DNA of 64,000 nucleotides from an uncultured Planctomycetia bacterium. GTDB lineage: Bacteria > Omnitrophota > Gorgyraeia > JABMRG01 > JAFGKX01. This document shows positions 3,001 to 58,438 of this stretch, one piece after another (the stretch's first letter is position 1; every line of letters begins with the position of its first letter). The notes below the pieces were generated by a model. It was not told the origin of the DNA. It did not search any database and was given only the letters and a program-made list of their open reading frames with translations. The stretch is from the NCBI GenBank assembly GCA_964570585.1, contig CAZMYR010000001.1:17441-81440 (forward strand). Direction: 5' to 3'. A program made the position numbers and the translations under genes.

Positions 3001-3344
3001 GCATGCGTTCCTATCCTAACCTCAGGGCTGGCAAAAGACTTGGGTAACTCATTGTATGCATCAAGGAATGCCCCGAATGTCCTATCTCCCATAACCATGG
3101 GGACCAGCATCTTATTGGTTATCTCCACTGCGCTCATTTCTGCTCCGCTTAAAGGTTCCATTCCGTGACCGCTAACCTCTGCCCCTCCACCAATGCGGGC
3201 ATTGTTACGGAGGTTTACCAGAAGATTGGACTTGCGGCCTCCAAAAATCAGAGTCTCCTCATTCTCTGCCATTATACTGCCTTCTGTCTGTTTCATTTCA
3301 TCCTTCACATAACCAAAACCTACCGGGCCCTCTAAAACATCCAT
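1..3344 (-). CDS. Partial large multidomain protein, >=1114 aa; the C-terminal part continues past the window start. Ends in a class-II (Zn) aldolase-like module.
   Basis: Hand translation of the minus strand, codons topping at positions congruent to 2 mod 3. Verified codon by codon for 3-1673 and 3120-3360, with spot checks at 2400-2460 and 2880-2940; no stop from the ATG at 3342-3344 to position 3. Starts MDVLEGPVGFGYVKDEMKQTEGS. A possible SD (AGGGGAA) lies 13 nt upstream. Class-II fructose/tagatose-bisphosphate aldolase family signatures: SLIEAGFTSIGIDAS (941-985), IATNNGSGHGIDY (~200-240), GVIKFNIATN (12-41). Linker motif AEAKSSSAGKLP at 1638-1673. Absent from the supplied ORF track because it runs off the edge. 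Confidence 0.55.
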   Translation of the reverse strand, partial: MDVLEGPVGFGYVKDEMKQTEGSIMAENEETLIFGGRKSNLLVNLRNNARIGGGAEVSGHGMEPLSGAEMSAVEITNKMLVPMVMGDRTFGAFLDAYNELPKSFASPEVRIGTHANFGRYEKQKVVNRVLERFKKYIGKLGFEEAGTRRQYQEGKRKYGSLYYIYKPAQPVDIKLTGMTLHNVSEIALDLIDGAKYYVKCDEGQYFVSFLSRKSNTQNEIITRVDGDSIEVRNAIATWMYGFFEQVDATDLLTEEAKEKGEAAIILSRDLWIVYEVLPRLAYQLLPKRIQKQLDRLAEQLIEETLQALAEGKIIKGLRVKNRDNLGYFYSFKGERKEGFDRIVHWTEKMLGSDNPLLIPEEQDLGEMVDTFLGYRLPDELARAIREIYGRSLKAKTAKYNTALNYDYDDKGRLGLELLAARYVTRRVKDKLAVMDVARLRKEEDFPYIEIGQKLLLKARYLFEVTDVNGAGIQAKFIQTGQAKPDFIEDGDSVIIHRLPVEKASHLVAGDEVPFLTNEIFITFDPNAILNDRHSGFLITKDASGIQPLPLELTGLPIAEAKSSSAGKLPEERIAEIRKWDRKTISGDEAAANKARQMLIQEAGGKVQQAITELIQHRDDQYIETVGSTGTATIIGPSEGLFTPGHDAFEAVKKARKALIAADIVSYNQIEGHLKAAMAQNAAVIFAVGRSQLSYALHEKRVVAYVREVAERIGFKNPLVLHGGRLQYEDYLFDAKAILKEEYEKENGEGTYNDKIRIDTIDVKILEAVQRRLNDNLSAERAIIKSDIESLIEAGFTSIGIDASTIYDGVAGEAVLDYYEKNGTPAEDLVVSLERNSMLPLEWGADFLKANPYDKDNMARLDHIRGTVISNMKKRNRAPGKIDSVVRNMNAAFGVLRKKARMYKDVRGPGVSEKSPVESISEDEVIAAYDKIMREVARATIAGDLSPEVSKSISEKQKLLLLPTSNAEETAHQLEYIDRIVDKHTPELTGHFGKVIEVGQVDKKVPNPRRDGKLEPKMTHPAVIRVMGEYLKLKNLSFDLIATNNGSGHGIDYDMKTLAPIPQVDKISPWLTEELQKEAERFNVAIVQPETIEGDMEELAVLAKAGVIKFNIATN

Positions 3345-3392
3345 ATGCAGACGGATTCCCTGCTTTAAATATTCTTGCTTCATCTTCTCCAC

Positions 3393-6300
3393 TAACAGCT
3401 TAAACCCAGCGTAGAATTTCACTTCAACATAAAATATTGTCCTCTGAGTATCTTTTTCGCCTAAACGCCTGGCTTTCTCTACATCCTGCCTGGCTATAGT
3501 CCTGGCGTACAAGGCCATCAGTTCATCGCCTTGAACCATCTTGGCTAATTGGGGCAGCCAGGTAATTAACCTGTCCTTGTCTTCATCGCCGATTATGGCT
3601 ATTTCTACATCTTTCTCTTCAAAGGTGGCCATCGCCTGTCGGACAAACCACGGTATATTAGGATAAGGTTCGCCATCCGGGAACATATAGTCAGGGTCAT
3701 CGTGGACTACCAAAACCTTTTGCCCTAAAGCTCTAAAGATAATCTGATCCATTCCCCCTGAACCATGCTGATAACCTAATCCAAGGGTGGGTAAGCTATA
3801 TTTCTCAAACGGTCGCTGCCAGCAGAGTAAAGGCCGTTCTGAAAACTTCTCATCAAACTCTTTCTGTTCAGCTCTAGAAAAGCCTAAACTCTTTCCTAAA
3901 TCTTTACGGATTGCCTCCCATTTATCATCCCAATCTAATTCCCGGGTAGCCATTATAAGCTCGCGTATTCCACCCTTCTGGTGGATAGCCCTTTTCCATA
4001 ACCATCCCCATATATCTCTTCCTAAACGAATATAGGCTATTGAATATAAATAGTGGGTATAGGCAACCTCTACTGCAGAGAGCACTTTTATTTCTCTCTC
4101 TTTCAGCTGTTCTTCTGGACAGGGCCTGGTTCTGCCAGCAATAATACCTTCTTTTAAACCCTGCATCTCCTCATCATTAATACTCAATACCTGGGCTAAG
4201 GTATGTTCCCTACCTTTTTTATCCAGTTTAATATCGAACCAGCTGAGCATCTGTTTCCAGCCGCTAAACTCCCAGGGGTTATGGCTGGCTGTGCCGTGGC
4301 CACCACCAAATAAAAGATGCTCTGCCTCTTTATAGGCTTCGAGTAAATCTCCTCTTCCTTCTCCTACACATATCCCATCATTCCAGAGCAGGTTGACAAT
4401 AAGATAATACATTGGGGTTGAGATAATACCTTTCTTTTCAAAATCTTCCGCCAATACATTAAATCTTTCCACATCTTCAGGGCGCAGACGTCCGGCATCA
4501 AGGTCTTCCTTTATCCATTTCATAGCACGGTCAAGGCCTTTCTTATTAGATTTTACTAAAAATACGTTTACTCCTGAATAAAGCAGGCCTAAGGCATAGA
4601 CATCTCTATGTTCCTGTATAGGTAGGCGGCATCCACCACTGACTAAACCCCAAACCTTTTCTCGAAGCTGCTGATGCAGTTTGGGATTTTTTTCTATTTG
4701 GCGTTTTAATTCTTCGTCTTTTAAACCCATGCCTTCTAACATAGTGGTACCTAATTCTATGGCTGAGGAGAAGATAAGCTTCTTAGACATCAAGGCCGGA
4801 TATCGCTCTGTAATCCCAGGAAGTTTTAAGTCTGTGGTTCTAAAAGCGGAGCGTAAATCATAGGTTCTATAGGAGAACCACTGGCCATGTTCCATAATAT
4901 CGAATCTTCTAATAATATCGCCCTCGCGAACCTCTATATGTTCCTGGATAGTAACTCCTTTTGCCTTAATCTCTCGGGTATCATCAAAAAGAATATTATC
5001 TACACATTGGAGTTTTCCCTCAGTCCTTTTTTCCTTATAGGTTATCTCATGGGGGTTATCAATGATTTCTACTCCTGCAAATGGCCTCATATGACCATTT
5101 TTCTCAGGAACTTCATTTAGGATATCACTTATCTCATTAAGGAGTTTAGCTGAATCTTTAACCGTTAAACCAAAGACTTGAGAAAAGCTTTCTACTCCTT
5201 CTTTCCTGCTTTTAGAAGACACTCTGTTAGCTGCTGTATATTGAGCATCTCTGGTCATTATCTGGTGATAGGCAACTATCTTGGTAAGCGTCTTGTATTG
5301 TTCTAAGTCAAACTCAGATTTATGTCTGCGGAGGGTTTCAGGATTATGAAGGGCTTGGGTAAGTATCGATAATTGATCGGTCTTCAAGTTTAATCCAGGG
5401 TGAAGCATAGCATAAAGCGAGGTCAACATCGTAAGTAATTCTTCTGGAGCTGCTTCTCCTTTTTCGAGTTCTGCTCTTCCTATCTCATAGCCGCCATTCT
5501 TCAGAACAGCATTATATGCAAAAATTGTCCGCCAGATATCGCCGGCTTCTAAATAAGCCTTAGCCACCGCCCGGTATAGATGGCGCCATTCCTCTGCCTC
5601 TACTTTTTGGGGTAGTTTACGTAATTCAGCGGCGTCGGCCTCTATATCTCCCCCGGTAACCTCTGCTAAAATCCCAAGTATCCGGCTATCATCCTTTGTC
5701 TCTTTGAATATATCCACTGCTAATGGTAGAAGCCGCAATATAAAGTGCAATCTTTCCAAGCGCTTAATCCTTCTGGATAAATCTTTTTCAGTCTCGGCAA
5801 CATCTACTCCGTGAGTTACATAACTGCCTGCTGAAGCAGATTTGGTGGCAATAGCACCAATAAGGCTTTTAACTTCTTCAACGGGCTTGAAGAACTTAAG
5901 AACCTCTGCTTCGCCTTTAGCGCTAAGTACATATCTGCCAACAGTTGATGGAACATAAAGCGATTGGCCCCTCTTAAGAGGGATATCTTTCCCGCCTGAG
6001 CTAATTACAACCTCGCCTTTTATAACAAGAATATCGTGAGAAGTACCTTCTACTGGCGCTACACTTAATTCAGCCTCAGCGCCTTTTCCTTTTCCATTAA
6101 GCGTAAATCTGTGCACATTAAAATATTCCTGGGGCCAGACATTGGGGTATGTGCCTTGGATAAGGACTTCTTCTTTTGCTATCAAATCCTTGCCATACCT
6201 ATCTCGCCATTTTCCACGCTCAATTTGAGGCTCTAAAACAAAATTCTTCTCCTCTGTTGTTGTATCCTTTAAACCTTTCCTGACGAACATCTCTATTGTC

Positions 6301-8702
6301 TCAAACTCTGCCTGTAAGAAATCCTCTTCTGATGTAGTCGGACGTCTGGCTAAATTCTTGCGCATTATTAAACCTTTATCTTTTTTGAAAACAATAGGGG
6401 TAAAAAAGTCTGCAAAACTGAAGGTAATATTAGAGGTTTGCTGGGGTTCAACAAGTATAAGATGTTCATTGCCGCCTGTATCGTTTACAGGTATTACTAT
6501 CCAGGCCTCATTTTTGGCCTGCGGTCCTTTCAGGGGATGGGTCTGGTGGGAAAGGCCAAATATACTATGGGGATAACCGACGGGTGAGAGGATAACCTTC
6601 CCGGGCTCAAGTTCAATCTCATTAAATAATTCTACAATCCTGGCTCTGACACCTTGGATTTTGCTCATAAGCTGGCTGATTCTACGCCGATTTTCACTCT
6701 TTACAAATTCTTTTATATCCGGGATAAAATCGCCCCACCATCTACTCCCTGCTTGATAGTCGCACCAGTTTGTATAAACTTCTTTAAATCTTCTAAAAGT
6801 CTCTTCGTCAGTTATATCCAGGAGGTTCTTTAGCTCATGCTCCAGCTCTCTCTCTTCCTTCAGCCACTCAATAAAAACTTCTATTCCGACCTCATTGAGC
6901 TTTTCGTTGAACCCCATATGTACTCTATCTACAAAGTTTGTGCATTCAAACTTCTCAAAATAACCCTTATCTAAAGACTCACCAAGCATTTCGGGATTAT
7001 ATCCGAGAAGTTCTTTTAATGTTATAGGAGCCACATCTCCTAACGCTGTATCAGGAATAGTTGATAAGCCATCGTTATGAGTTGAATTAAACCAGAGCTC
7101 TGCTATGGGGTTATTTTTATCTATCGGCCTGCCTAAAACTATCTGGTTGGCTATTCCGCCCCAGGCATAATTTTTTTCCGCAGGAGTAGTTATTAGGGGA
7201 CTGTATTTTGCCTGTTCTATCAAATCCTTAATCTGTTTTATTCTGGTTTTTGCCTGGTTATTAGTTATAAGTTCGGGTAGCGAATCATCTGAAACATGAA
7301 AGTGAATCTCCCCGATGTTTTCTACTACTGTTCTGATAAGGTCAGCTATCTTCTTCTCATTTAACTCTTGATAAAATGTAAGCAGGTCTTTCTTGCCTGT
7401 AAACTGCTCCAGCATCTCTGTAGGGTTACTAATCCAGATAGGTTTAGGTGCGTCTTCTATGGTCCTGAGCATATAGTGTTTACCACCGGTGGATATAGTA
7501 GTATACGGTGGAAATTCTGCGTTCTTAACAATAGTTGCAACTGCCCCTGCCAACATCGGATCATAAGCAGGGTTAATCTTTTTCATATCTTTTGGGTCAA
7601 GCTTAATCGATATATCATTAAATCTCAATCCCCCTAAATTTACCATAAAGTCGGCATATCCCGGAAGGGCAAATGTCCAGGAACCTGCACTGACCCTCTG
7701 GGCCAAGACCTCTATTATGTTACCCGCTTCATCATATAAGATATTAAACTGGATACCTTCCCCTTCTGTTACATATTTTATGTCCAGAGAAATACCTTGG
7801 TAGTGTCCTACTCCGGTGCTGGTTGCCTGGATTGAGCCTGGCATCATATCGTGCAGAAAGGAGGTTTCATGAATGGTGGATAATTTCTTTTCCCTGGTAA
7901 GTTTCTTAAGGACATCGGGCACCCCTATAAGGCAATGGGCCATAAGATAGATAAGCTGCTTATTTCTCGCTGTTTGGAATTTCTTTGAATCATAGCGGGT
8001 AAGGGTAGCAAAGGCTGGGTTTGAAACGCTGCCTACGCCAAGCTTATCAATGCCTTCTGTGCCTCTATGATAAAATCCGAGTCCGCCTTCTTCATCCACT
8101 ACCAAAAACGGCAAGGCACTGACATCCAGATAGCTTAATCCTTTAGGGCTGGTAGCCATTCTGTCCATATCTGCAGTAACTCCAAAGGCTTCTCCTTCTG
8201 GCACATCTCGCTTAATCCATGATATTATATTCAGGGCCTGTCCGGCCATAAGCTGGAGAGCCTTTGATATCTTTGAATTCTGCAAGGAAAGACTCAGCTT
8301 TATTACTGTTGTATAAAATTCTTTTACATAGGGCTCGATGGTTCTATTATCAATAAACTTTTCTTTTAACTCATTGCTTATGGCTTCAAGGGCCGAAGGC
8401 AACTGGACAGATTTATATGCATTAAATAAAACCTTCGCTGCCTCTTTTGCTTTATACCCACCAATAACCAGCTCTACCATGCTTTCTACTTCAAGCTTAC
8501 CTGCGGTGGAAAGATAAGACTTGCCTGTTGGTACCTCTGATAAACTACTTCTAATTTTTGCACCCACGGAAGAGGGTGTATTTCGTAGAGAAGTTGCTCT
8601 TAGGGCATCAGTATCAGCAAATGCAGTTGGCTGAATTGTGCTTACAGCGAATATTATCGCTACGATTAAACTTACCGCCTTCTTTAACACCCCTTTACCC
8701 AT
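3393..8702 (-). CDS. Secreted large multidomain protein (1769 aa) with an N-terminal signal peptide and two mannose-6-phosphate-isomerase-like cupin segments.
   Basis: Start ATG at 8700-8702, preceded by GAGGAG with a 7-nt spacer. An alternative in-frame ATG lies at 8727-8729. The frame was verified open codon by codon from 8702 down to the TAG at 3393-3395. N-terminus MGKGVLKKAVSLIVAIIFAVSTIQPTAFA-DTD has positive n-region, hydrophobic core and AXA cleavage site, typical of a signal peptide. A PMI class-I-like motif GLSHQTHPLKGPQAKNEAWIVIP lies near 6480-6560. A cupin barrel ending GQSLYVPST lies at 5941-6122. This ORF is NOT in the supplied ORF track. Confidence 0.6.
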
Positions 8703-8893
8703 TTTCAAATCTCCTCTTTTTTTTGTCATAGTCTTTCATAAATCTTTGCTTTGTTATGCTTAAGTTATAAAAGTCTTTAATTACCCGAATACAGCGCAAC
8801 CCTTTTGCCTCGGTTTGTCCCCCTCGAAAATTTTTTATGGAGACAGTAAAATCGAGGCCAAAGGGTTGTTTAAACGCTATAACTCTATAACCC

Positions 8894-11800
8894 TTATGCT
8901 GCTATCAGGGCAGCCCAGGCCTGGCGCTGGAGTCTCTCTATCTCTTCCTGGCTTAGTTTCTCAACACCTGGTAGAGTGGTTATTATAAGCTCAAAGACAC
9001 TCCAGGTACCTTCTCTTAGGGCTTGCTCAACTATAGCTTCTATAGTATTCTGGGTGTATTGCTGATACATCTTCTTTATAGCAGGGAACAGCTGGTTGAA
9101 GTTATCTTCATTGAGAGACAAAAGACCCCTGGCTACGGCAATAAGCTCTGCCATTGGAAGAAGTATATCATCTTTCTTAACCCCTATCTTAAAGAGTTTG
9201 ACATCAGCAAGCTGTTGTTTGTCTGAGATAAGGATGGTTTTCTTTCTGTTTAGGGTCTGTCTGTTTACATCAGCTAATAATACTATCTGGGTCTTTTTAG
9301 TTACTTGGCCTTTATCCTTAAAGGATAGGGCATATTCTAAGGCGTCACGGAGTCGGTGGTCTTTAAGCATAGAGATAACCGCCATCCTCTGTTTTATATC
9401 AGGAATGGCGTTGGCATCTACGATGATGGTGCCTTCTGATTCTATCCTGGCAATAGGGGCACAAACTCTGGCAAATTCTATTACACTGCGCTGGGTTGCT
9501 ATCTTAAGCTGGATAAGCTCTTCTTCAGCTGAGGTAAGAGTAGTTTCTACTTTTAACCTTGTTGCCTTTGCACTTAATTGAGTCAATTTCTGTAAAGACT
9601 CTGTAAGCAAGCTATCATTGAGTAGTTCTACCTCTCCAGGAACCTGGGTGGTCTCTTTAACCAGGGCGTCAAGAAGTATATTCTCGGCATTAAGTAATCC
9701 TCTATTAAGCTCTGCCAGAGCCCGGTTGCCGGCTGAGGAGGATTTATTAGGCTTGTCTGATGATTTCTCTCTGCCAACCATCATATCGTCCATAGCAAAG
9801 GCTTGCACTTTTTTAGCATAAGCCTTCTCTGCTTTTGTGTATTTGGCACCTGCTCTTCTAACTAAGATTTTCTCTGCATCAGGGAGTCGCTTCAATAATT
9901 CTTTTCTGGGCGCAGGACCGGCTACGAGATTCTGTTTCTGTAATTCAACTATCTGTTTTCCGGTAAGAATAGCTATGCCAGCCTCTGCAGATTTATCTCC
10001 GATTTTTTGCACCAGTGCAGCTACCGGCATAAACCCCTCTAACATATTTTGAAGATCCCTTACCTGATATAAAAGAATATAGGCACCCTCAGTTTCTTTT
10101 AGCGAAAGAAGGGTTATATTAAAATCGTCGCATTGTAAAAGTAGCAGCCCTTTCTGTCCAAGTTTAGCATCTTTTATAAACTGCTGGTCATATCCAAGTT
10201 TTGAAACCTGTTTTTTAAATCCAATTAACACATTGTATAAAAGCAGCAGCCGGGATGCCCTTACATCGTTCATAGGAATATCTAGAGCCAGCCTTACAAG
10301 AATCTCTGGTTCAATAACCTTAACTTCCTCACCGGCCAGTATTACACCCGATGAGGAGGATTTGGATGTGGAAATAGGTTTTGGCAGCAGTTTTGAAATA
10401 GCTGCTGTGTCAAGCTCAGAAACCAGCGTAAGGGGAAGGTCCTCGCTGGGTGGCAGGTATTTGGCGGCATAATCGCTCTTCCAATCCTCTGTGAGCTGAG
10501 CTATCACCTCTTGCTTAACTATAGCATAGATACTGCCTTTTTTATCAATGCGTACATCAACAAGAGGGTTATCGCCTTTATATTCCCACCATTTGTGTCC
10601 TATCTTGAATCCTGGCTTGTCAGTCTCCATATAGAGAGAACCCGGCCCAAAGATAACCGCACTTGTGTCTATGCCGGACTTTAAGAATATGAGTTTGCCT
10701 TGCTTAATTTTGACAGATGACCAGCGAGTATTGGCTCCCATATTTCTGAAGGTATAATCACCGGCGGAAGGTATCTCTGGTATATAGTTGATTGCATGCA
10801 ATGTCTTAAGAAGACTTGAGAAAATTTCTGTAACCGACTTCTGTTCCTTAGCTCCGGCTGAGGAGGACTTGGTAGATTCCTGTATCTGTGCCATTAGTCT
10901 AATATTGCGCTCTAATACATTTTGAGCAGCAATATTATGAGCTAAAGCCGGTTTATCCTTAATTCTTTCCATCTGTTCTTTTGTAAGATGTGCTATATAA
11001 GCCTCAAGGCTACGCCTGCCCTTTATTCTCATCAATATTTGTATATCTGCAAAACCAGACAGTTCTGCCTTCAAAAAGCTAATGTATGCGTTATCAATTC
11101 CGGGCATACGAAAACATCCAGTAATCTCAAAAGGTGTGTGTTCAAACATACTTTGAATCATTCGCTCATTCAAAGATATGTCTCCTACGCTTCTGGCTTC
11201 ACGGCTTAATTTTTCAAAATTGTCAAATGGGAAATTTTCTTTTATATGAGCAAAAACAAGTCCATTATTCGCCAGATTCTCGCGTGTAATATCTTCGACT
11301 TTAATACCAACATCACCTATCCGGACTATCTTGCCGGCTGACGAGGATTTGCCTGCAACAGGTATTATTGCTACCTCAGGAACTAACTCAAAGACAGCCC
11401 AGAGGTCATATCTGTTGGGTTTTCCTAATTCAATAAAGCTGCCACCACCTTCCCAGCGATGTTGACCATATGCTACTACACCACCTGCCGTGGTAACAGG
11501 TTTACCTGTTTCAGGGTCAAATCCCCAGAATGGACCATGGGCATGGCCTCTTGGCAGGGGAAGATATGCTGGCTTTCCACTCTCATTATAATAGACCATA
11601 CCGCCCTTACCGGTTCCATTGCGCATACAGAAGTGAATCTCACCAAATGTGGTGTCTTTGGTTAGTTCGCTATGGTCGTGGTCTGCACAGTTTACACCCT
11701 GGCCTGCGGTCCAGAACTGGATATAACAGACCTTTTTCTCTTCACCGTTTATTATCTCTATACCCTTGAGGTTATAGAAAGCTAAATTATCAAAATGCTC

Positions 11801-14800
11801 GCCCCAACCATAGGTATTACAGTTTACCCAATTAAGCAGGTCTGCTCTTGAGCCGGTGGTGATATCAGTCTGAGACATTTCAGTAACAACAGCGTCAGGA
11901 GTTGTGTCAACCATGATAGCTACTATGGCACCTTTTTCTCCTGCCTCGATATACTCTTCTGTAACCCGGGTGTTCCTGAGCTGCTTGGCAGGAGCAAAGG
12001 CATCACGGTTGATATTGCTTAATTTACCGGTTATAACATTAACATAGTTTTCACCGCGTGTATGATCCAAGGCTAATTTTGCACCTGGAGCTAATTGGAC
12101 ATACTGCATACTCCAGCCTGCCATCTCCCATTTTTCGGTGGCGTTTATCAGGCTTTCAGCCATAGTCTTGAATCTTATTGCTATTTTGCGCTCATCCTCC
12201 TCGGTTATCTTTGCATCAGGTGTTATTTTAGCCAAAACTACTGCTGGCATCTGTGAATTTCTCTCAAACATCATCTGTTTTCTATAGGTCTCGGCCATGC
12301 TTAGCTCATTATCGTCATTTACCCCTTGGAATTCCCTGATATCCGCCAAGGCAGGAGCGATAACACTTAATGTACCATTTTGGGCAAGAATAGCAGAAAT
12401 CTGAACAAAATTTATCTCTCCTTTCTTGTTGGCAGAACTATCATAAGGATTTAGAAAATCACCCGCACTATCTTTAGGGAATTTCTCCAAAGTACTGAAT
12501 ATATCTTTTGCTTTTCCCATAAAGAGTCCTACATCGTCGCAGCCAAAATCTAATTTTGCACCTTTTTTGCTGCCTATTACCCTTCCATTTTTATCTACCA
12601 TGATAGGAGCGTAGGGGTCCTTTTTATATGTAGTAGCTATGCTAAAGGAGACATCGCCTAAGGCTTGATGTATCATAGTAAGCCAAAGAACAGTCTCCGG
12701 ATTCAATACTGCCATATCTCCCCATACAACAAGTAGATCTCCATCAAATTGCGCTAAATTCTCCTTTGCAGAAAGTACTGCGTGGCCGTCACCTTTTATA
12801 TAGTCCTCAAAGACATATTCTGCATCAAACCCGCCTTTATCTAAAGCCTCTTTTATCTCTGCAAAATTTCCGCCTTTACCTTCTTTTCCTAATGCATCCC
12901 TCCATTGTTCGGAACGGACTACAACAACGGGTTTTTTATCTAAAAACGCTGTCTGTCTTAATACGTGATAGATTATAGGTTCGCCGCATACCTTCTGGAG
13001 AACCTTTGACTTCTTGTCTGTCATCCTGGTACCCAGGCCTGCAGCAGCAACAATAACCCGTACCGGCCTTTGAAGCTTAAATTCTGCTGAATCTTTTATA
13101 CCCAGGATATCAAGAGTTAACCTTCTAATAGTATCTTTATTCTTTTCATAATTAGCCCCATCCCTTATAAGGTCTCTTAAGACGCTCTTGGCTAAAAAGT
13201 TCCTTAATTCTGTTAGCTCTTTTTTAAATTCAGCTATAGAAGAAAAACCGCCTTTCGTGTCCTTGACTTTGTAGTGTAGCGCCAAGAACCTACTCTGTAT
13301 AAGCTTGTTTAAATCTGTGGCATTAACAAATTTCATCTTTTGTATAATATTTTCAATCTCGCCATAACCTGGCCGGGTGAAGAGGCCATAAATTAAGTAT
13401 TCCAGCTCACCGATGGGGTCAACTCGCATAACAGAATAATCTATTAAAAAAGGTGAACCATCGGGTTTTATTAAGATGTTTCTGGTGTTTATATTCCAAG
13501 TCCCGGGAACATCTTTGCCCTGCAGGTATGAAGCTACATCGGTTATATTTATAACTGTATCTATGAGCTCGATACCGCGATAACCCATAGCCCCTTCATT
13601 AATGCCCTCAAATTTCTCGCCAAAAGGTACACCTTCGGCATAAGGATAGACTATCGCCTTTGCATCTTCTAAGCCGGCCCATTTATCTTTACCGGCGCTC
13701 ATAACCACTGGCCTATATATATGGGGATAATCCTCCGGGACTCTTCGTAAAAATTCATATATCTCATCTGCTTGCCTTTCCATACCCTCTGTTTCTAACT
13801 TCTTAATAACAAAAAGCTGCCCACTTTGTTCATCTTCTGCTAACAAGAGTTTCTCGCTTCCGTGTATCGGCCCGATGATAATAAATGTTTTTTCACCCAT
13901 CTTGTTACACAGGGTCAGTTTTTCAACAACTCCCTCTTCTCCAGCCGAGCTGGCTTTGACCATAGTATCGGCGGCTGAAGCTACCTCGGATCTTTCAATT
14001 CTCTGTCTAACGCCCTTAAACTCATCCGTAGTCCTGGCAACATCCATAACATCTGGCCAGAAAAGAAGCGTTTCCCCGTCGCTTTGCATCTGTTTTCTTA
14101 CATCTTTTTCGACCTTTTCAATAAAGGCATCTTTCGTGCTATCATTTATTCCGCTCATATACCTTCTTTCATTTGGTTCTGGCATCTCATCAAATACAAT
14201 CTCTGTACCGTCTGCTAAGGTTATAGAATAACGCGTTTCCTGTTTCACCGCATCCCCATGCTTCGCTGGCATTTTGGTGGTTTTGATATCACTTCGTTTT
14301 ACGGTATGGGGAGGTCTGCTATCGTCTATTTCAAAGTAAACCACTCTGTCTTCTTTCTGCTTCACATCACCAACTAAATCCTCTATTATTATTACCGGCT
14401 TTAGCCTGATAATAGCTCCTGTTTGGTCTACTTCCATACGATATGTTGTCTCTACCGGATGTTTGGTGATTTTAGTGCCTTCTACTTTTTCCACCCCTGT
14501 TCTTGGTGGTAAAAATTCTACAACGAATTCGCCCGCAAGTATATTAAGGCTATCATGCAATTCTTTATTGCCATGTTTTAATGCCGCAGCGGCCTTCTTG
14601 GTAAGGGTGTTTATCCTTTCTATTGTCCTTGCCTGAAGGTTGTGTAGGGCCTCTTTGCGTTTGTCTGGAATCTCATAAATCTTCCCTTCTTCTATCATCT
14701 CTTTTCCAAGATACCTCATACGTTCTTTATAATCTACGCGGTCATCATATTTTTCCATAGCTTCGAATCTGTCCAGGGTTCTTCTTACCACCCTGTTTAA

Positions 14801-17800
14801 GATATGCCAATCTGCCATAGCGCTATGTTCCTTACGCACCTGTAGGGGTATATTGGGCCTTGTTGCGGTCTTTAATCTATGGTGTCCACCTACTGTCCTG
14901 GTCCATGTCATAAGCCGGCCTGTCACGACCCTTACCAGATAGTTAAAGTATGGCTCTTCTCTCCTGTACAGCTGGCCTATTGTTGGTATAGGAAAAACTG
15001 AATCATCAAAACTGAACATATTCATACACATAAAAATCCTTTTGGATAAAGTGGTATCTTCTTGCGGGTCAAGAAGTGCGGTAACAGCCTCTGGCCTTGC
15101 AAGATAGAGTACCTTAAGGGCCGCCTCCTGCAACATATCAGAATCTATGGCACCCCTTTCCAGAAATGAATCTATCTGAGCATCGGCTGATTTATCTCTA
15201 TCGTGATTAAAGTGGGTTGTTGCGCACTGATTCCTTAAAAAGCGAATCTCATCCACATTGCCTGTAAATACCGAGCCTGCAAAACCCCTCTTATCCTTAT
15301 CTACAATCATCGCTCCTGTATTTGGGTTTACTGCAAAGGCACCAAGCGCCCTATCTAATACGCCAAGATAATCCACTGTATATCTATCATATTCATATGT
15401 ATGATATTCTGGAAATTTTTTCTCTTTATCTTCTGGCTTATTATCAACATGGGCAAGTATCGCATCCTCTGATACTACAACCCGTTCAGGAAGTCCTGTA
15501 TCGAGTAAGGCATTAAATCGCGTAGTATTATCAACATTCTTTTGAACTATCTGTCCTGCCTTCTCTGGTATTAAGGCGGTAGTCTCCTTTTCCTCCGGGC
15601 TACTATATCCATAGTATATCCTTATAACATCTGTTACCTTCTTGGAAAGAGTTGGATGAGTTCTTAGATATGCTACAAAATCCGATTCAGACTTTATTTT
15701 TTGCTTAGCAGCAGTGTGTAATTCCTTGAAGAATTTTTTTCTCATATCCTTAACCTCTTGCCTTCTCTTTTCTAAAATATCATCAAGCACTTTCCTTTTG
15801 GCAACCCTCATAACCGGGAGAGAATCATCATCCACTGAAGCCATTCTGAGACCCATTGCAAGCATAATGGTAAAGTTTCTTATCCCAGATATATTAGAGG
15901 CAAACTGGTCAGCCAAAATTCTTTCCAGCTGTGGCCTAATAGAGTCTACATCCTTAAACTGGCGTAGAATATCTTCGCGCAACTTGTCCTGGCGCCAAAG
16001 ATCTGTATAACGTTCAGTAAGCGTATCGATTACCTTTTTTACGATGTTGTCTCTTACATCCCAATCGACATAGGTTATATTGAAACCTCTTTTTTTAAAA
16101 GTCTCAATTACCATCCTATCTAATTCCCCCCATTTCATAGCGCGTATATCCTTTGGTGTCTTTTTACCCCCAAAAAGGGTTTTATTTACCCATTCAACCT
16201 CTTCGTCTTTCATCGGCTCTGCCTTGGCTCCAGGACCTTTAGTGAGTACATTCGAGGTAACAGCTATAGGGATATTGCGGTGACCAAACTCATCTAGAAC
16301 TTCAGTTTGACGCTCCAATACTCTATATAATGCACTGGGTCTTCTATATGAAGGTATCCATAAGGGGCCCAGGGTTATATCTCGCGCGCGCGCCATAGTA
16401 GCTCCTTTTTTAATTAAACGCCTCGATTCATCTAAAGCTGTTTCTGCAAATTTCTTCATATATTTAGGGAGGTCTTCTGCAGCCAGCTCATAAAATACCC
16501 CTTTACCTCCTGCTACATCTGAAACAATAAGATAATCTTCAAGTGCGCTGGTAAGATTAAGATAGTCCGGGGCATAGCCATTTATATAGCCGTGATATCT
16601 TAATATGTCTTCATCATATATATAGTAATTGACACCCTCTGGCGTTTCTATTCTCTTGATATTAACCTTTTTGCCGGTCTTATAACCTATCACCCTTAAA
16701 AAGTAGAGAAAGTCCTTGCCAAAATCGGTTGGCTCATCTTCATCATTAAAAATCATCTTAATATCATCCTGAATAGCAGCAGGCCTTATGCCTAAAACTA
16801 CCTGCAGAAGAGGTGCATTGGCCTTTTCGAGTAAGAATCTCTTTATGGCTTTTCTGTTTTCGGGAACATTATCGGCAAAGGCCTTATTACTCACCTTAGT
16901 TTTATCATCTCTCAGCAGTCCGCTGGCAACATTAGATATTCTTCTTACATTATCGGTATATTCTATATCATCAAAAAGATAAGCCAATTTATCCCTGAGG
17001 GCATCAGCTGCCTCCCTAAGCCTGCTTCGTCCCGTTATAGTGGTTGGGTCGGTCTCTTCAATTGTCTTTATAGGCACAAAAGATCTATATCTGTCTATAA
17101 TAACCGGTATGTAAGGGAGGTTGAATGTAAAACCGGAGATGTTTCTTTCAATCTGAGCGCCCACATAGATAACAGGCCTTCCATGTTCATCTACATCTTT
17201 CTCCTCCTTTAAATTTATAAATGCGTGGGGTTCCTTCTTTGTAACCTGCTCAGTAATCTCTTCTATAGTAAGCTCTTTATCATAATTATCAGGCAGCTCA
17301 AACGTCTCCATAAGCCCATCTATGGAAAAGAGTATAGAACCGGTGTGGAAATAAGGAAAGTGAGTTCTTAATTGGTCTTTGTCTAATTCAGATACGTGCC
17401 TTTTAAATTCTTCTGTCATATCATTCTTATCAGCAATGACCATCTTACTTTCGCCTGTCTCCTTATCAATCGCTGTTAAAAGAAGCCCTCCTCTTTCATT
17501 TCTGTTTTCAGCAACGCCTACTAAAGCTACTGGGACCGGTCTACCATCCTCTCTCGCTTCCTCTATCTGCTCAGCCAAAAGACCCTTTAATTCTGCTGAT
17601 AACCTTCCGGCAGTATTATTCATATGGGCGTTCATCACAAAGTTTATATTGTCTCTTTTTAACTTTGCTAAAATACCGTTTAATATAAGCCACCTGACAA
17701 AATCCCAGTGCCCGGGAGGATTGGTTACTAATCTGCCATCTGAAAGCCTGAGCGGTTTTCCAATATGTTGTCTTTGGATAGCGATACCTCTGCGTAACGC

Positions 17801-18772
17801 CTCTAATTCTTCTTCGGAAATCTTTTCTTGCCGATAATCCTCCTCCTTTTGTTCAAGGTAGTGGATTAATATAGTTTCTGAGGGTGTAAATCTTATCTGT
17901 ATCCCCTGTTCAAATATCTCTATATCGTTGCGGTTATAGCCATAATGGTCATTCCTCTCCAAAATCTCTTTTATCATCTCTCCAGTTTCACCGCTCCCCA
18001 TGAAATATACTTTAACCCGGGCACTCTTATCTTTGGTTGCTTCTCTCAGTTCCTCTTGTGAACGTTTCGCTTCTGCTATCTTAAGCTGCACAAACCCATA
18101 AAGCTGGTCTGGATTATCCGAGTTTAATTCAGGTATAGCAAATACAAATCCGGCCCTCATCTCGCCTTTTGTCCGTGTGCTTAATCCTCCTGCAGAAGAC
18201 CCAAAAGACGCAGGTATTCTACTGCCACGTTCTCTGAGTTCATGCAGTCGCCTTTCTTCCATATTCATAATATCTATAGGGCCTCTCCTACCGGTGGGAT
18301 CTGTGGTTGGCGGCGATTTAAGTTCCATCGGCCTTCTTATATTAACATCTTCTACGTAGTGGGCCTTCTGGGCAAAGTTTCGCATCGCCTCAAATGTCGG
18401 TAGCTCAGTCTCAAAGAAATGAAACTCAAGTAAGTCCCGGGCCTGCTTAAGTATGCGCTGCGCTTGTTCCTTCTTACCCTGTTTCAGCGCCTGCTCAGCC
18501 AAATCAAGCTGGGTGTTGTATATATTGTATAACTTCCCGTGTAAATGCTCAGGAATAACAACATCTGGTTTTATTGGACGGTTACCGCTTGAACTACTCT
18601 TCAGAGCTGCTACTATTGGCGGCCTACCTTCAAAAACCCCGACTGAAGAAGGCCTCAGATGGTCCTGAAGAATCACTGTAGTATCTACAGGAGCTGCCCA
18701 TAAGGTATTGGTTATAGTAAATGTTATCGCTATACTCAAGTTTAAAACCTTCGCTAATATCTCTTTAATCAT
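8894..18772 (-). CDS. Giant secreted multidomain protein (3292 aa) containing an APH/anomeric-sugar-kinase-like module followed by a sugar-1-phosphate nucleotidyltransferase module, plus at least 7 copies of the K-S-S-S-A-G linker motif.
   Basis: ORF track entry. ATG at 18770-18772 with GAGGAGGA 5 nt upstream. N-terminus MIKEILAKVLNLSIAITFTITNTLWAAPV is signal-peptide-like. Stop TAA at 8894-8896. Confidence 0.85.
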   Translation of the reverse strand: MIKEILAKVLNLSIAITFTITNTLWAAPVDTTVILQDHLRPSSVGVFEGRPPIVAALKSSSSGNRPIKPDVVIPEHLHGKLYNIYNTQLDLAEQALKQGKKEQAQRILKQARDLLEFHFFETELPTFEAMRNFAQKAHYVEDVNIRRPMELKSPPTTDPTGRRGPIDIMNMEERRLHELRERGSRIPASFGSSAGGLSTRTKGEMRAGFVFAIPELNSDNPDQLYGFVQLKIAEAKRSQEELREATKDKSARVKVYFMGSGETGEMIKEILERNDHYGYNRNDIEIFEQGIQIRFTPSETILIHYLEQKEEDYRQEKISEEELEALRRGIAIQRQHIGKPLRLSDGRLVTNPPGHWDFVRWLILNGILAKLKRDNINFVMNAHMNNTAGRLSAELKGLLAEQIEEAREDGRPVPVALVGVAENRNERGGLLLTAIDKETGESKMVIADKNDMTEEFKRHVSELDKDQLRTHFPYFHTGSILFSIDGLMETFELPDNYDKELTIEEITEQVTKKEPHAFINLKEEKDVDEHGRPVIYVGAQIERNISGFTFNLPYIPVIIDRYRSFVPIKTIEETDPTTITGRSRLREAADALRDKLAYLFDDIEYTDNVRRISNVASGLLRDDKTKVSNKAFADNVPENRKAIKRFLLEKANAPLLQVVLGIRPAAIQDDIKMIFNDEDEPTDFGKDFLYFLRVIGYKTGKKVNIKRIETPEGVNYYIYDEDILRYHGYINGYAPDYLNLTSALEDYLIVSDVAGGKGVFYELAAEDLPKYMKKFAETALDESRRLIKKGATMARARDITLGPLWIPSYRRPSALYRVLERQTEVLDEFGHRNIPIAVTSNVLTKGPGAKAEPMKDEEVEWVNKTLFGGKKTPKDIRAMKWGELDRMVIETFKKRGFNITYVDWDVRDNIVKKVIDTLTERYTDLWRQDKLREDILRQFKDVDSIRPQLERILADQFASNISGIRNFTIMLAMGLRMASVDDDSLPVMRVAKRKVLDDILEKRRQEVKDMRKKFFKELHTAAKQKIKSESDFVAYLRTHPTLSKKVTDVIRIYYGYSSPEEKETTALIPEKAGQIVQKNVDNTTRFNALLDTGLPERVVVSEDAILAHVDNKPEDKEKKFPEYHTYEYDRYTVDYLGVLDRALGAFAVNPNTGAMIVDKDKRGFAGSVFTGNVDEIRFLRNQCATTHFNHDRDKSADAQIDSFLERGAIDSDMLQEAALKVLYLARPEAVTALLDPQEDTTLSKRIFMCMNMFSFDDSVFPIPTIGQLYRREEPYFNYLVRVVTGRLMTWTRTVGGHHRLKTATRPNIPLQVRKEHSAMADWHILNRVVRRTLDRFEAMEKYDDRVDYKERMRYLGKEMIEEGKIYEIPDKRKEALHNLQARTIERINTLTKKAAAALKHGNKELHDSLNILAGEFVVEFLPPRTGVEKVEGTKITKHPVETTYRMEVDQTGAIIRLKPVIIIEDLVGDVKQKEDRVVYFEIDDSRPPHTVKRSDIKTTKMPAKHGDAVKQETRYSITLADGTEIVFDEMPEPNERRYMSGINDSTKDAFIEKVEKDVRKQMQSDGETLLFWPDVMDVARTTDEFKGVRQRIERSEVASAADTMVKASSAGEEGVVEKLTLCNKMGEKTFIIIGPIHGSEKLLLAEDEQSGQLFVIKKLETEGMERQADEIYEFLRRVPEDYPHIYRPVVMSAGKDKWAGLEDAKAIVYPYAEGVPFGEKFEGINEGAMGYRGIELIDTVINITDVASYLQGKDVPGTWNINTRNILIKPDGSPFLIDYSVMRVDPIGELEYLIYGLFTRPGYGEIENIIQKMKFVNATDLNKLIQSRFLALHYKVKDTKGGFSSIAEFKKELTELRNFLAKSVLRDLIRDGANYEKNKDTIRRLTLDILGIKDSAEFKLQRPVRVIVAAAGLGTRMTDKKSKVLQKVCGEPIIYHVLRQTAFLDKKPVVVVRSEQWRDALGKEGKGGNFAEIKEALDKGGFDAEYVFEDYIKGDGHAVLSAKENLAQFDGDLLVVWGDMAVLNPETVLWLTMIHQALGDVSFSIATTYKKDPYAPIMVDKNGRVIGSKKGAKLDFGCDDVGLFMGKAKDIFSTLEKFPKDSAGDFLNPYDSSANKKGEINFVQISAILAQNGTLSVIAPALADIREFQGVNDDNELSMAETYRKQMMFERNSQMPAVVLAKITPDAKITEEDERKIAIRFKTMAESLINATEKWEMAGWSMQYVQLAPGAKLALDHTRGENYVNVITGKLSNINRDAFAPAKQLRNTRVTEEYIEAGEKGAIVAIMVDTTPDAVVTEMSQTDITTGSRADLLNWVNCNTYGWGEHFDNLAFYNLKGIEIINGEEKKVCYIQFWTAGQGVNCADHDHSELTKDTTFGEIHFCMRNGTGKGGMVYYNESGKPAYLPLPRGHAHGPFWGFDPETGKPVTTAGGVVAYGQHRWEGGGSFIELGKPNRYDLWAVFELVPEVAIIPVAGKSSSAGKIVRIGDVGIKVEDITRENLANNGLVFAHIKENFPFDNFEKLSREARSVGDISLNERMIQSMFEHTPFEITGCFRMPGIDNAYISFLKAELSGFADIQILMRIKGRRSLEAYIAHLTKEQMERIKDKPALAHNIAAQNVLERNIRLMAQIQESTKSSSAGAKEQKSVTEIFSSLLKTLHAINYIPEIPSAGDYTFRNMGANTRWSSVKIKQGKLIFLKSGIDTSAVIFGPGSLYMETDKPGFKIGHKWWEYKGDNPLVDVRIDKKGSIYAIVKQEVIAQLTEDWKSDYAAKYLPPSEDLPLTLVSELDTAAISKLLPKPISTSKSSSSGVILAGEEVKVIEPEILVRLALDIPMNDVRASRLLLLYNVLIGFKKQVSKLGYDQQFIKDAKLGQKGLLLLQCDDFNITLLSLKETEGAYILLYQVRDLQNMLEGFMPVAALVQKIGDKSAEAGIAILTGKQIVELQKQNLVAGPAPRKELLKRLPDAEKILVRRAGAKYTKAEKAYAKKVQAFAMDDMMVGREKSSDKPNKSSSAGNRALAELNRGLLNAENILLDALVKETTQVPGEVELLNDSLLTESLQKLTQLSAKATRLKVETTLTSAEEELIQLKIATQRSVIEFARVCAPIARIESEGTIIVDANAIPDIKQRMAVISMLKDHRLRDALEYALSFKDKGQVTKKTQIVLLADVNRQTLNRKKTILISDKQQLADVKLFKIGVKKDDILLPMAELIAVARGLLSLNEDNFNQLFPAIKKMYQQYTQNTIEAIVEQALREGTWSVFELIITTLPGVEKLSQEEIERLQRQAWAALIAA
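12380..13080 (-). other. Sugar-1-phosphate nucleotidyltransferase (NTP_transferase fold) module inside the 3292-aa protein
   Basis: VIVAAAGLGTRM verified at 13021-13074. This is the G-x-G-T-R glycine-rich loop of GlmU, RmlA and MurU-type nucleotidyltransferases. Downstream LLVVWGDMAVL fits the family. Boundaries are approximate. Confidence 0.55.
13380..13700 (-). other. Protein-kinase-like / aminoglycoside-phosphotransferase-fold sugar kinase module inside the 3292-aa protein
   Basis: Translation PGTWNINTRNILIKPDGSPFLIDYSVMRVDPIGELEY (verified at 13451-13510). It resembles the HGDxxxxNxxxxxxxxxxxIDxE catalytic/Mg loop of APH, choline-kinase and AmgK-type kinases. Boundaries are approximate. 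Confidence 0.4.
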
Positions 18773-19161: not shown

Positions 19162-22100
19162 CTATGCGGCGGCATTTATGAATTGGACAATTCTAAAATC
19201 AGCATCGGGCTTCAGATATCTTCTGTCCGTCCTATCTGCATCTTGCACCTTGTCGCCTTCAGTGGCTTTTGGTTCAGGTTCCTGTCTGGTGGTATCACTG
19301 GATAAATCCTTTCTACCTAATAATCTGGCTAACCCGCCACTTACGCTGAGTTGACCAGCTGCTCCTTCTCCGGAAATATCTGGAATTCCAAATTGGGCCA
19401 GATTTTTATTACTGAACTCGGGACGGCCTGTAACATCAATAACTCTGCCAATACCTTCTGGAAAAGAAGGTATTGTTGTCTTCTCATCCGGAAGCTCTAC
19501 TTCAAGAGTTACCAGCCCCTCAAGTTTTCCATAGTATCGGTCTGTTTCTGCCGTTAATCCGTCTTTAAGGGGAACGCAATATCTATCCTTAACAATAACT
19601 CTTTCGTTCGCAAGAGGCCCAAGTCTTTCATAAGTTTCAGCTGATATCGGAATTTCTATTTCTCTTCTTGAAATTCCTTCTCCTATCTTAATGGTAAAGA
19701 AATATTTAGTGCCTTTTTGCCTAATTCTTACTTCCGTATCGCCTTCTATGAATAGATAACGTTGAATAATCCTTGCCGGTGTATAAGAATTCAAAAATTC
19801 CGGAAAATCAAAAAGTAGAAACTTCCTTTCTATCTCCAGGCCTTCTTCTTTTGCCTTAAGCTGAGTTGCAATCTTTTCTAAAATCTCCTTAAGCAAAGCC
19901 TGCCTTAGTCCGACATCATCTATAAGTCCGGTTAGAATATCTGTTATTCTCAAATATAAATCTCTTATATGTTCATTTTTCCAGACGTCTTCTTTAGGCG
20001 GTACCAAAACTGTTTCTTCCCCACTCAACTCTCCGTCAGGCCTCTTTCTTTCAACGATTAACTTAGAGCCTGCTCGTAAGTTTCCCTCATTATCAAGACC
20101 AAGCACGGCATAGACCACAGGCGCATTCATAGGAACGCTTTCCGGATCCTTAACTGCACAATATCCTTCTCTGCCCATAGAACCATCCCTATCGACCAGG
20201 ATAGGCTCGGTATTTATCTGCTTAAAACCAGTAATCTCACCGACATACCTCATAAATTGTGCAGCCGGCCTCATATTTATCTCGGTGTTACCATCAGGTA
20301 AAACCTTTGTTCCAACGTTAATGGGCTTAATCTCCACATGGGTCGTCATTCTGTTGGTTGCATTCTTTACCTTTTCCAAAAGCCCTGCCTGAGAAATCTG
20401 CGCATATTCCTCTAAATTCAAATCAAATAATCTTAAGATTGAATTAACCTTAATATAAAATTGATTGCTGCTAAAATTATCTCCTGGAAGCGGCTGGTCC
20501 AAATTCATATCCTTGCCTTTGCTTAAGACATGGACAAATGTTCCGCCTTTTTCTACTTCACCCTTAATGCCAGGCTTTAGCCTTTTTCCTTTGAAAATAA
20601 TACTCAGTTTATCTCCTTCTAACTTTAGCTCTATACCTTTTGGGAGCTTGGATGACCTTATAATTTTCCCTTTTCTTGCGATAACCCTAAATTCTTTATC
20701 CTCTCCTTGGAAACAAGCAGGGTCAGTAGACCGAAAACTACCGAATATCTTATCGTCCTTGTTTATACTATAAACGGTGTTCTTCTCTATCAGAAGAGTC
20801 AAGATATCGACATCTTTCTTTCTCATAAGATAAGCGGCCTTGGCCGGATCCAGCATACCACCTACATCATCGCCATTTGCTATATGAAGTACTTTAGCGC
20901 CTCTCTGGGCCAACTCGAATAATCTCCTGCTTAAGACCAGCTTGGCAATGATATCGAAATGGCCAACCGGCTTACCGGTATACCCGCCGTCGTCATTTCT
21001 GAATATATCTCCCATATCGCCATTATCGGATAACCATTGTTCTACATTTGCATCAGCATCTTTTCCGTGAGGCAGGTTATATTTTTTACTATCTAAAGGG
21101 GCACCTGAAGCTCTTATGTCTTTATCTGTCGGATTAACCCTGGGTATCTCCCCCTGGGCATATAAGTATAAATCATTCGGAGAATAAATCCCGTATCCGG
21201 CTACCCTTTTCCCAAGATAACCGATATTATTACCACTGCCCATAATCGCCAAGGGTATATATCCCCGGCGAGCTTTTTTAACCAGGTATTTTAAATACAT
21301 CATCTTTACTTCAACGCTGCTAAATAGCCTTCCTGCTATCTTCCATATCGGGGCAAGGAGCTTCAACTTCTGTGATTCTGGTATCTTTACCTTATACCCA
21401 TAGAACCTGCCGGAAGTGCCACCGCCCGGAATTACTTCAGCAATCTCTTCGTTCTCCACCATTTCCATCCCTTCATCATCAAGTTCCTGTATATTCATTC
21501 CGCTTTCTGAAACCGCATCTTCAAAACTCCTGACCTTACTTTTTGGCGGGGCAATCTCTGACTCAGGAAAGCTGCTCTTTTCGACACTAAGCTTACCTGT
21601 TTTATATTGTCTTTGTAATCCTAAAAATTCCTCAAAATCTACAGAAGCAGAAGTATCAGGGTCATCTTCATTAAGAGGAGGAAAATACTTCTTTATTATC
21701 TCTAAAGCCTCTTGAGGGTCTTTCTTTTTTGTCAACTCAAAGATAGTGTGCGAATCGTATTTTTTTAGCCTGGGCTCATATATCCTGACCATCGGGTCGC
21801 GTAACAGGTACTTAATAAATGGGCAAGAATAACCGTTATCAATCAACAATCTTCCAAAAGACGTCTCTTCTATTGGAATATCAAAGATTGAATGCATTTC
21901 GCTAACTGCCTCTAATGGTCCAGAACTCAGGTGAGCTACGTTCTTCTGTCCATTAAGCTGTCTTTTGTCTGATGGGTCTATACCAAGAGGAAGTTTTCCC
22001 AAAACAGCATCCCGTCTAATGCTGCCGGCTATATTATTACCTCTGGGATTATTATCATCACCTAATAACCCTATCCTGCTCTCCTGCCAGGTAGCGCTCT

Positions 22101-58104: not shown

Positions 58105-58133
58105 TTGACAAAGGGCACACATTGTGTTATATT
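58105..58133 (+). promoter_or_regulatory. Sigma70-type promoter TTGACA-17 nt-TATATT driving brnTA
   Basis: -35 box at 58105-58110 and -10 box at 58128-58133, with consensus spacing. Confidence 0.55.
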
Positions 58134-58438
58134 TATATGCATTGAGGTATTATACGTGGAATGATGAAAAAAATAAAAAGTTAATCGTAGAACGAAATAT
58201 CTCTTTTGAAGAAATAATTTTCTATATTGAAAAAGGTTGTTTGCTTGATACTTTAGACCACCCAAACAAGAAAAGATATAAGAGGCAACGCATATTTGTG
58301 GTGAGAGTAAAAAATTATGTTTACCTTGTACCTTTTGTTGAGAAAGAGAAAAACATTTTTTTAAAGACAATTATTCCTAGTCGTAAGGCTACGCGAATAT
58401 ATTTAAAGGAGGATAAAAAAAATGGCCAAACTAGATAA
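58124..58438 (+). CDS. brnT: BrnT-family (DUF497) ribonuclease toxin
   Basis: WNDEKNKKLIVERNISFEEIIFYI ... IFVVRV ... KTIIPSRKATRIYLKE matches BrnT hallmarks (WD..K...N..KH.ISFEE and RIISARKAT). The track start is GTG at 58124, which overlaps the -10 box. An in-frame TTG at 58142 is the more likely, leaderless start. Stop TAA at 58436-58438. Confidence 0.75.
   Translation: MLYLYALRYYTWNDEKNKKLIVERNISFEEIIFYIEKGCLLDTLDHPNKKRYKRQRIFVVRVKNYVYLVPFVEKEKNIFLKTIIPSRKATRIYLKEDKKNGQTR

Follow-up and report, generated by a model that had tools for sequence, protein, structure and literature searches.

A putative kinase-like, nucleotidyltransferase and bicupin module bounded by a recurrent hexapeptide in a giant protein of an Omnitrophota-type locus

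Results

The window analyzed here, a stretch of 64,000 nucleotides (64 kb) of contig CAZMYR010000001.1, contains four consecutive very long open reading frames (ORFs A to D), all on the minus strand, to which the coordinates of their features refer. Our subject is the 3292-aa protein encoded by ORF B (8894..18772). On balance, we favor the reading that a protein-kinase-like (PKL) domain, a GlmU-N-terminal-type sugar-1-phosphate nucleotidyltransferase (NTase) and a bicupin form one motif-delimited module in it (aa 1612-2474, window 11351..13939), a bead on the string of a multi-enzyme protein that would be exported, in which the NTase would be the working core, the cupin would act on a sugar and the PKL domain would be an accessory. 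By its sequence, the NTase (aa 1897-2183, 12224..13084) certainly belongs to the GlmU-N-terminal type. NCBIfam GlmU models match aa 1901-2178 with an E-value of 2.8e-21, Pfam NTP_transf_3 matches with 1.5e-7, and all 17 of the 17 PDB sequence matches are GlmU N-terminal domains, the best being 9dqf (E 1.4e-14). The motifs AAGLGTRM...K, GDG(H)AV, WGDMAV and QGVN are retained, so that the NTase shares with the GlmU N-domain and MurU not only the fold family but also the G-x-G-T-R-M loop, the catalytic Lys and the GD and GVN metal motifs. To refer to relatives we use the labels P0001-3, P0009-P0023 and P0047 for homologous proteins, and L001 and L005 for loci that carry relatives. The NTase is 54-57% identical to those of P0001-3, and its motifs are invariant among them except in P0001, which reads AGLDTRM (G-to-D).

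The resemblance to GlmU is nevertheless partial. Matches to the GlmU models stop at about position 245 of 450 and score 75 bits against equivalog cut-offs of 367-725; identity to GlmU is about 25-34%, there is an insertion of 25-30 aa, and the residues at the GlmU sugar and uracil contacts differ. No left-handed beta-helix acetyltransferase follows the NTase, where Pfam gave no hexapeptide-repeat match and a cupin of the aldos-2-ulose dehydratase (AUDH) type is found instead. The MurU model NF045697 scored 13.9 bits against a cut-off of 370 (E 0.026). Unlike both GlmU and MurU, the NTase is embedded in a 3292-aa protein with a signal-peptide-like leader. The bicupin (aa 2205-2463, 11384..12160) matches Pfam AUDH_Cupin (PF18637) over profile positions 23-307 of 308 with an E-value of 4.7e-37 and 128.5 bits, the gathering score being 25, and its sole match in the PDB search was to residues 463-731 of aldos-2-ulose dehydratase (4a7k, E 7.5e-21). 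With this enzyme of Phanerochaete chrysosporium it shares the nearly full-length model match and the conserved H-x-H-x-E and downstream His motifs, but it is bacterial, fused to an NTase and devoid of the beta-propeller dehydratase and C-terminal lectin-like domains. A stand-alone secreted homolog, P0047, is 41% identical to it.

The PKL domain (aa 1617-1870, 13163..13924) lies directly N-terminal of the NTase, to which it is joined by a helix (aa 1871-1896, 13085..13162) that comparison with homologs shows to be kept wherever the NTase is present, including in L005, which has no PKL domain. Four family members scanned against Pfam gave no kinase family in this segment even at an E-value of 10, nor a match to the APH profile (PF01636) at E<=10, and no kinase model was among the NCBIfam matches of the whole ORF B protein at E<=0.1. 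Because both collections are blind to the domain, its fold was established by profile search and structure modeling. AlphaFold2 modeled it from 18 sequences with a predicted local distance difference test (pLDDT) of 88.6 and a predicted template modeling score of 0.84; when the whole 863-aa module was modeled from four sequences, the prediction was confident in the PKL part alone, and the NTase and cupin parts, with pLDDT below 50, were not used. A sequence-only reading of this DNA had placed a kinase-fold module 5' of a nucleotidyltransferase with the GLGTRM loop, and the model and the GlmU profile match confirm that arrangement. The same reading called the kinase APH-like, which did not hold: its nearest structural neighbors are not APH-type small-molecule kinases, the closest being Ser/Thr protein kinases. 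The coordinates it gave, 10330-13080 (aa 1898-2814), hold the NTase, leave out the PKL domain and take in the bicupin, which it had not mentioned.

The PKL domain belongs to the Hanks branch by its bilobal kinase fold, its beta3 Lys (FVIKK), alphaC Glu, D-x4-N loop and Mg-binding Asp, the last in LIDY, the equivalent of DFG; beta3 Lys, conserved Glu residues, loop and Asp stand at canonical spacing in the 18-sequence alignment. It is nonetheless far from the Hanks-type Ser/Thr kinases PknB, PknG and YabT, with 10-19% identity, no Pfam Pkinase match, a degenerate glycine loop, WD in place of HRD, DY in place of DFG, and a short activation segment without an APE motif. Searching the PDB with the PKL alignment returned only one marginal match, to the LRR pseudokinase 5uv4 (E 0.17), in which the catalytic loops are aligned. 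This loop reads (V/I)-W-D-x4-N in the family and W-N-I-N-T-R-N in ORF B. The catalytic Asp, present in 17 of the 18 aligned members, is exchanged only in the window copy, for Asn1760 (codon AAT at 13493..13495). Because of this exchange the window copy, which keeps its ATP- and Mg-binding residues, is probably a pseudokinase or a weak kinase, as judged from sequence. The family is small: a profile of the domain and three homologs, run against 1.84 billion representative sequences, recovered 34 proteins at E<=1e-3, about 20 of them strong and nearly all of them 1000-4000 aa long, and 11 of the 17 proteins in the weak tail of the search are Pkinase proteins. Local searches with hidden Markov models found the PKL domain directly followed by the NTase in ORF B, P0001-3, P0010 and P0018, and without a following NTase in P0009, P0011-16, P0019, P0022 and P0023, while the NTase of L005 stands without a PKL domain. 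As each partner also occurs alone, the pairing is a trait of a sub-family and not an obligate two-step enzyme. In P0002, leader, motif and the PKL+NTase unit make up a free-standing gene of 650 aa.

The limits of the module are set by a hexapeptide, K-[AS]-S-[SP]-[AS]-G, found at 11 sites, which are spread over ORFs A, B and D; composition alone would predict 0.0075 sites. In ORF B, motif 1 (KSSSSG, aa 58-63, 18584..18601) closes the leader, motif 2 (KASSAG, aa 1606-1611, 13940..13957) and motif 3 (KSSSAG, aa 2475-2480, 11333..11350) follow, and motifs 4-6 lie at 10853..10870, 10346..10363 and 9728..9745. ORF A carries one site (KSSSAG, 1647..1664) and ORF D four (26009..26026, 26915..26932, 27731..27748 and 54773..54790). 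The sites always fall between recognizable modules: the PKL, NTase and cupin domains lie exactly between those starting at aa 1606 and 2475, the DUF218 domain of ORF D lies between two of them, and an aldolase-like module of ORF A begins past the site in that protein. We ruled out a repeat at the DNA level; codons vary among the 11 sites, so that selection acts on the peptide. In a sister lineage (L005, P0010 and P0013), strings of the [SK][AS]SSPV type are found instead.

Two further features accompany the motif. The leader of ORF B (aa 1-57, 18602..18772) consists of a signal-peptide-like segment ending in TLWA/AP and followed by HLRPSS, and phmmer (E 1e-6 to 1e-5) shows its homology to the leaders of P0001-3 and two proteins from L001, which otherwise differ as large proteins. 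In all six, some 60 aa run from the signal-peptide-like segment through [AH]LR[PA]xS to K[ST]SS[AS]G, with the K, S, S and G of the motif invariant. Since its Kyte-Doolittle hydropathy stays below 1.6, the leader of ORF B is only moderately hydrophobic and looks more like a signal peptide than an anchor in the membrane. A leader profile searched against 5.8 billion proteins gave no significant match, the query being too short. P0003 equals P0001 plus one additional motif-bounded module. At the other end, nearly all complete proteins terminate in -AA: ORF B (ALIAA, 8897..8911), ORF C (NAAA, 19165..19176), P0001 (EAA), P0002 (IAA), P0003 (QAA), P0009, P0011, P0016-19 and three L001 proteins; ORF D ends in QA. 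This terminus could be a sorting or degradation signal. No prior description of the hexapeptide, the leader or the -AA ends was found in the searchable literature, where the motif strings retrieved irrelevant papers only.

The rest of ORF B is mostly unannotatable. Its second module (aa 64-1605, 13958..18583) includes a divergent UDP-sugar pyrophosphorylase region of the UDPGP/UAP1 kind at about aa 100-304 (Pfam UDPGP E 1e-4, 21.5 bits against a gathering score of 22; PDB UDP-N-acetylglucosamine pyrophosphorylases 4bma, E 7e-4, and 9g53, E 1e-3). Four small C-terminal modules, separated by motifs 4-6, occupy aa 2481-2634, 2641-2803, 2810-3009 and 3016-3292 (8897..11332). Over most of aa 64-1605 and all of aa 2481-3292, Pfam at E<=0.05 returned only sub-threshold matches at chance level; the last 117 or so aa are similar to the C-terminal end of an L001 protein of 3325 aa.

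The sequence-only reading had also described sugar-activation modules in the adjacent giants. They can indeed be recognized, as ManA-, GlmM/PGM-, aldolase- and UDP-sugar-pyrophosphorylase-like stretches, but they are divergent and mostly below cut-off. ORF A (3..8729), of at least 2909 aa with its C-terminus beyond the window edge, has ManA-like modules (aa 519-588 and 867-940) and a GlmM/PGM-PMM-like module (aa 1651-1749) and a class II aldolase-like module (aa 2440-2599), by Pfam and NCBIfam matches. Only the last exceeds its threshold (Pfam F_bP_aldolase, 27.4 bits against a gathering score of 25.5), and because nearly all other scores fall far under the equivalog or gathering cut-offs we regard the modules of ORF A as divergent. 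ORF C (19162..24864; 1900 aa, ending in ...INAAA) contains a UDP-glucose-pyrophosphorylase-like stretch (aa 1293-1356; PDB UGP 2oef E 3.6e-4, Pfam UDPGP 19.6 bits) and, toward its C-terminus, a clear domain of the CYTH (triphosphate tunnel metalloenzyme) family that shows the EIERKF signature (aa 1677-1823, 19396..19836; PDB 2fbl and 3typ, E 2e-17). An NDK-like stretch noticed by eye near aa 690 of ORF C was dropped, as neither Pfam nor the PDB supported it. ORFs A and C each have a single hydrophobic segment, which is N-terminal.

ORF D (25175..57106), with 10643 aa the largest of the window, has about 25 hydrophobic segments in three clusters, and profile search revealed a divergent SecA_DEAD/SecA_PP_bind/Helicase_C motor (aa 987-1728, 51923..54148) directly upstream of the first transmembrane-segment cluster. 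For this motor no match to SecA_SW (scaffold/wing) was listed. HEAT repeats and DUF218 are present as well as the four boundary motifs. Two HExxH strings occur in ORF D, at 33602..33616 and 27995..28009, the second 82 residues ahead of a boundary motif. C39 or S8 peptidase domains were not detected in the window, and no protease was identified there. GC content is even across ORFs A-D (0.38-0.47).

The closest homologs of the module (56-57% identity) come from metagenomic loci, beside large proteins with ADK, APH, DprA/LOG-like and PilZ matches. Among 185,579 GTDB species representatives the only relative is L005, from the Candidatus Omnitrophota metagenome-assembled genome JAMWDE010000001 (44% identity), where the NTase lies within an ORF of at least 4975 aa; it was located by an alignment-based contig scan, and a single-protein scan of the same contigs found nothing. 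Ahead of the NTase, at about aa 1050-1280 of the translated ORF, L005 shows by eye a GNAT-like motif, RGQGLAKEF, in place of the PKL domain. An acetyltransferase-like region beside a uridylyltransferase recalls the two activities of GlmU.

The layout of the window matches what has been described for giant proteins of Omnitrophota. The Archaeovorins combine divergent SecA domains, HEAT repeats and many transmembrane segments, and their embedded enzymes, for which an extracellular location is predicted, include triosephosphate isomerase, glucose-phosphate isomerase, FBPase, PGM/PMM and aldolase domains (10.1101/2023.11.21.568195). A second preprint describes signal-peptide-bearing 'multi-enzyme metabolic clusters' (10.64898/2026.06.07.730766). 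Shared with our window are very long ORFs in tandem whose products have signal peptides, many transmembrane segments or both, HEAT repeats, a divergent SecA_DEAD and preprotein-binding motor without scaffold/wing inside a polytopic giant (here ORF D), and embedded sugar-metabolism domains, PGM/PMM-like and aldolase-like ones among them, that are predicted to be non-cytoplasmic. The sizes differ: the proteins of the window have 1900-10643 aa, against at least 30,000 aa in West-Roberts et al. (2023), and ORF D fits the class of at least 10 kAA of the 2026 preprint. The locus is thus a four-gene giant-protein locus of a known kind. The sequence-only reading had found the placement of cytoplasmic-type enzymes in signal-peptide-bearing megaproteins unusual; such enzymes are present here, but giants of this sort were already on record in these two preprints. 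Text searches of both for 'nucleotidyl' and 'cupin' gave no mention, nor did they turn up the PKL/NTase/AUDH-cupin module.

Beyond the giant ORFs, the window contains a HEARO RNA (Rfam RF02033, 119.7 bits, E 4e-25) at 58770..58991 on the plus strand, directly 5' of and overlapping an ORF with RRXRR and HNH domains (58840..60315, plus strand), translation of which probably starts farther downstream than the listed ATG; together we take them to be an IscB-type OMEGA element. Two overlapping small ORFs on the plus strand, 58124..58438 and 58422..58694, resemble a BrnT-type toxin (Pfam E 2.6e-7, just under the gathering score) and a CopG-type antitoxin (E 4.5e-6) and, judging by these matches, probably form a type II toxin-antitoxin pair. 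Finally, a minus-strand gene at 61622..62806 encodes an unusual combination, a response-regulator receiver domain fused to a C-terminal phosphopantetheine-binding domain like that of acyl carrier proteins, and adjoins a GAF-histidine kinase gene (62826..63992).

Discussion

In the reading that we favor, the NTase is the working core of the module because strong conservation has kept the loop that binds the nucleotide, the catalytic Lys and the Mg-binding Asp/Asn motifs, and by its motifs it would most likely condense a nucleoside triphosphate (NTP) and a sugar-1-phosphate into a nucleotide sugar. Since several of the GlmU sugar-contact positions differ, that sugar need not be N-acetylglucosamine-1-phosphate. 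The cupin, whose metal-binding His/Glu set is intact, would act on a keto- or anhydro-sugar. We see the PKL domain as a regulatory or scaffolding accessory rather than the first step of a pathway, because it is closest to Ser/Thr protein kinases, is mobile among many contexts and has lost its catalytic base; in the relatives that have the Asp it may, by analogy, phosphorylate its own enzyme or a partner. That Hanks kinases can act on this class of enzyme has a precedent in mycobacteria, where RmlA is phosphorylated by PknB; the paper concerned also names GlmU, by citation, among the substrates of PknB (PMC8044546). Because of its signal-peptide-like leader, the ORF B protein probably leaves the cytoplasm; alternatively, the leader may be a non-cleaved anchor. 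After export, the NTP-dependent modules would have to find nucleotides where they work, for instance inside prey or host cells or at an interface between cells.

Several points weigh against this reading. Some enzymes with a protein-kinase fold, POMK and FAM20B among them, act in secretory compartments to phosphorylate sugars, and the ranking of fold neighbors would also agree with a PKL domain that uses small molecules or glycans. That the PKL-NTase order is conserved in six proteins suggests functional coupling, an Asp-to-Asn exchange does not always abolish kinase activity, and the PKL homologs that carry the Asp may be active. The active sites of NTase and cupin were judged by sequence alignment alone, the AlphaFold2 models having a pLDDT below 50, export was deduced from the leader, and the link to Omnitrophota consists of one relative at 44% identity and the architecture, with no marker gene in the window.

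Some of these points favor the two-step salvage route that the sequence-only reading proposed, of the AmgK/MurU or NahK/GlmU type, in which the kinase-fold domain would phosphorylate the anomeric hydroxyl of a free (amino)sugar and the NTase would turn the product into a UDP-sugar. The order of the domains is that of these pairs, a kinase-superfamily enzyme followed by a GlmU-like nucleotidyltransferase, and it recurs in ORF B, P0001-3, P0010 and P0018; MurU itself was found as a 'GlmU-like nucleotidyltransferase' beside amgK (PMC5371407), the PKL homologs hold the full Lys/Glu/Asp/Asn/Asp catalytic set, and the neighboring modules are sugar-phosphate enzymes. AmgK and NahK, however, are APH-family small-molecule kinases and separate cytoplasmic proteins, whereas the PKL domain of ORF B is fused and Hanks-like, has no APH similarity in sequence or structure and lacks the catalytic Asp. 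Moreover, the domain often occurs without the NTase and in L005 another region stands in front of the NTase, so that the pairing is not obligate; the GlmM/PGM-like mutase module of ORF A could provide sugar-1-phosphate without any anomeric kinase, and the action of PknB on RmlA and GlmU (PMC8044546) offers another role for a kinase next to such an enzyme. The proposal is thus weakly supported at best, and we think it unlikely.

The lost Asp, the AGLDTRM of one NTase homolog and the many neighboring enzyme-like modules far under family cut-offs would also fit dead relics, reused as lectin-like, sugar- or nucleotide-binding beads of a surface adhesin or attachment protein, and attachment has been proposed for giant Omnitrophota proteins (10.1101/2023.11.21.568195). 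Yet the NTase motifs (G-x-G-T-R-M, K, GD and GVN) and the metal ligands of the cupin are kept among homologs at 41-57% identity, as purifying selection on catalysis would leave them, which makes this explanation quite improbable. Still less do we credit an effector that phosphorylates or nucleotidylates proteins inside a prey or host cell, an idea that we consider very unlikely even though secreted bacterial kinase effectors exist, the PKL domain is nearest to protein kinases and the protein has a signal-peptide-like leader. All the similarity of the NTase is to GlmU-type sugar-1-phosphate nucleotidyltransferases, the adjoining AUDH-type cupin is sugar-acting, and we know of no use of the GlmU-type fold for protein NMPylation.

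The hexapeptide may be a processing or modification site. Going further, we tentatively propose, as a possibility that we hold to be more doubtful than probable, that the ORFs are polyproteins with a sorting and processing code made of a pre-pro leader, the hexapeptide between every enzyme module and the -AA end. Following export, discrete enzymes, for example the PKL/NTase/cupin unit, would be cut free by a protease, or marked by a modifying enzyme, at the hexapeptide. The cleavage points of giant proteins are unknown according to West-Roberts et al. (10.1101/2023.11.21.568195), and this code, if true, would supply what that study of giant genes called missing. The hexapeptide in any case offers a testable rule for dividing giant proteins into units for structure prediction and proteomics, and among the leads from this locus the putative code of motif, leader and terminus most deserves to be pursued.

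Enzyme-studded giants are among the least understood features of the ultra-small, probably predatory or episymbiotic Omnitrophota. What the locus contributes is a defined unit that lends itself to experiments; the PKL+NTase pair also exists as the free-standing gene P0002. If NTP-dependent enzymes truly work outside the cytoplasm of the producer, this would bear on how such bacteria exploit their hosts.

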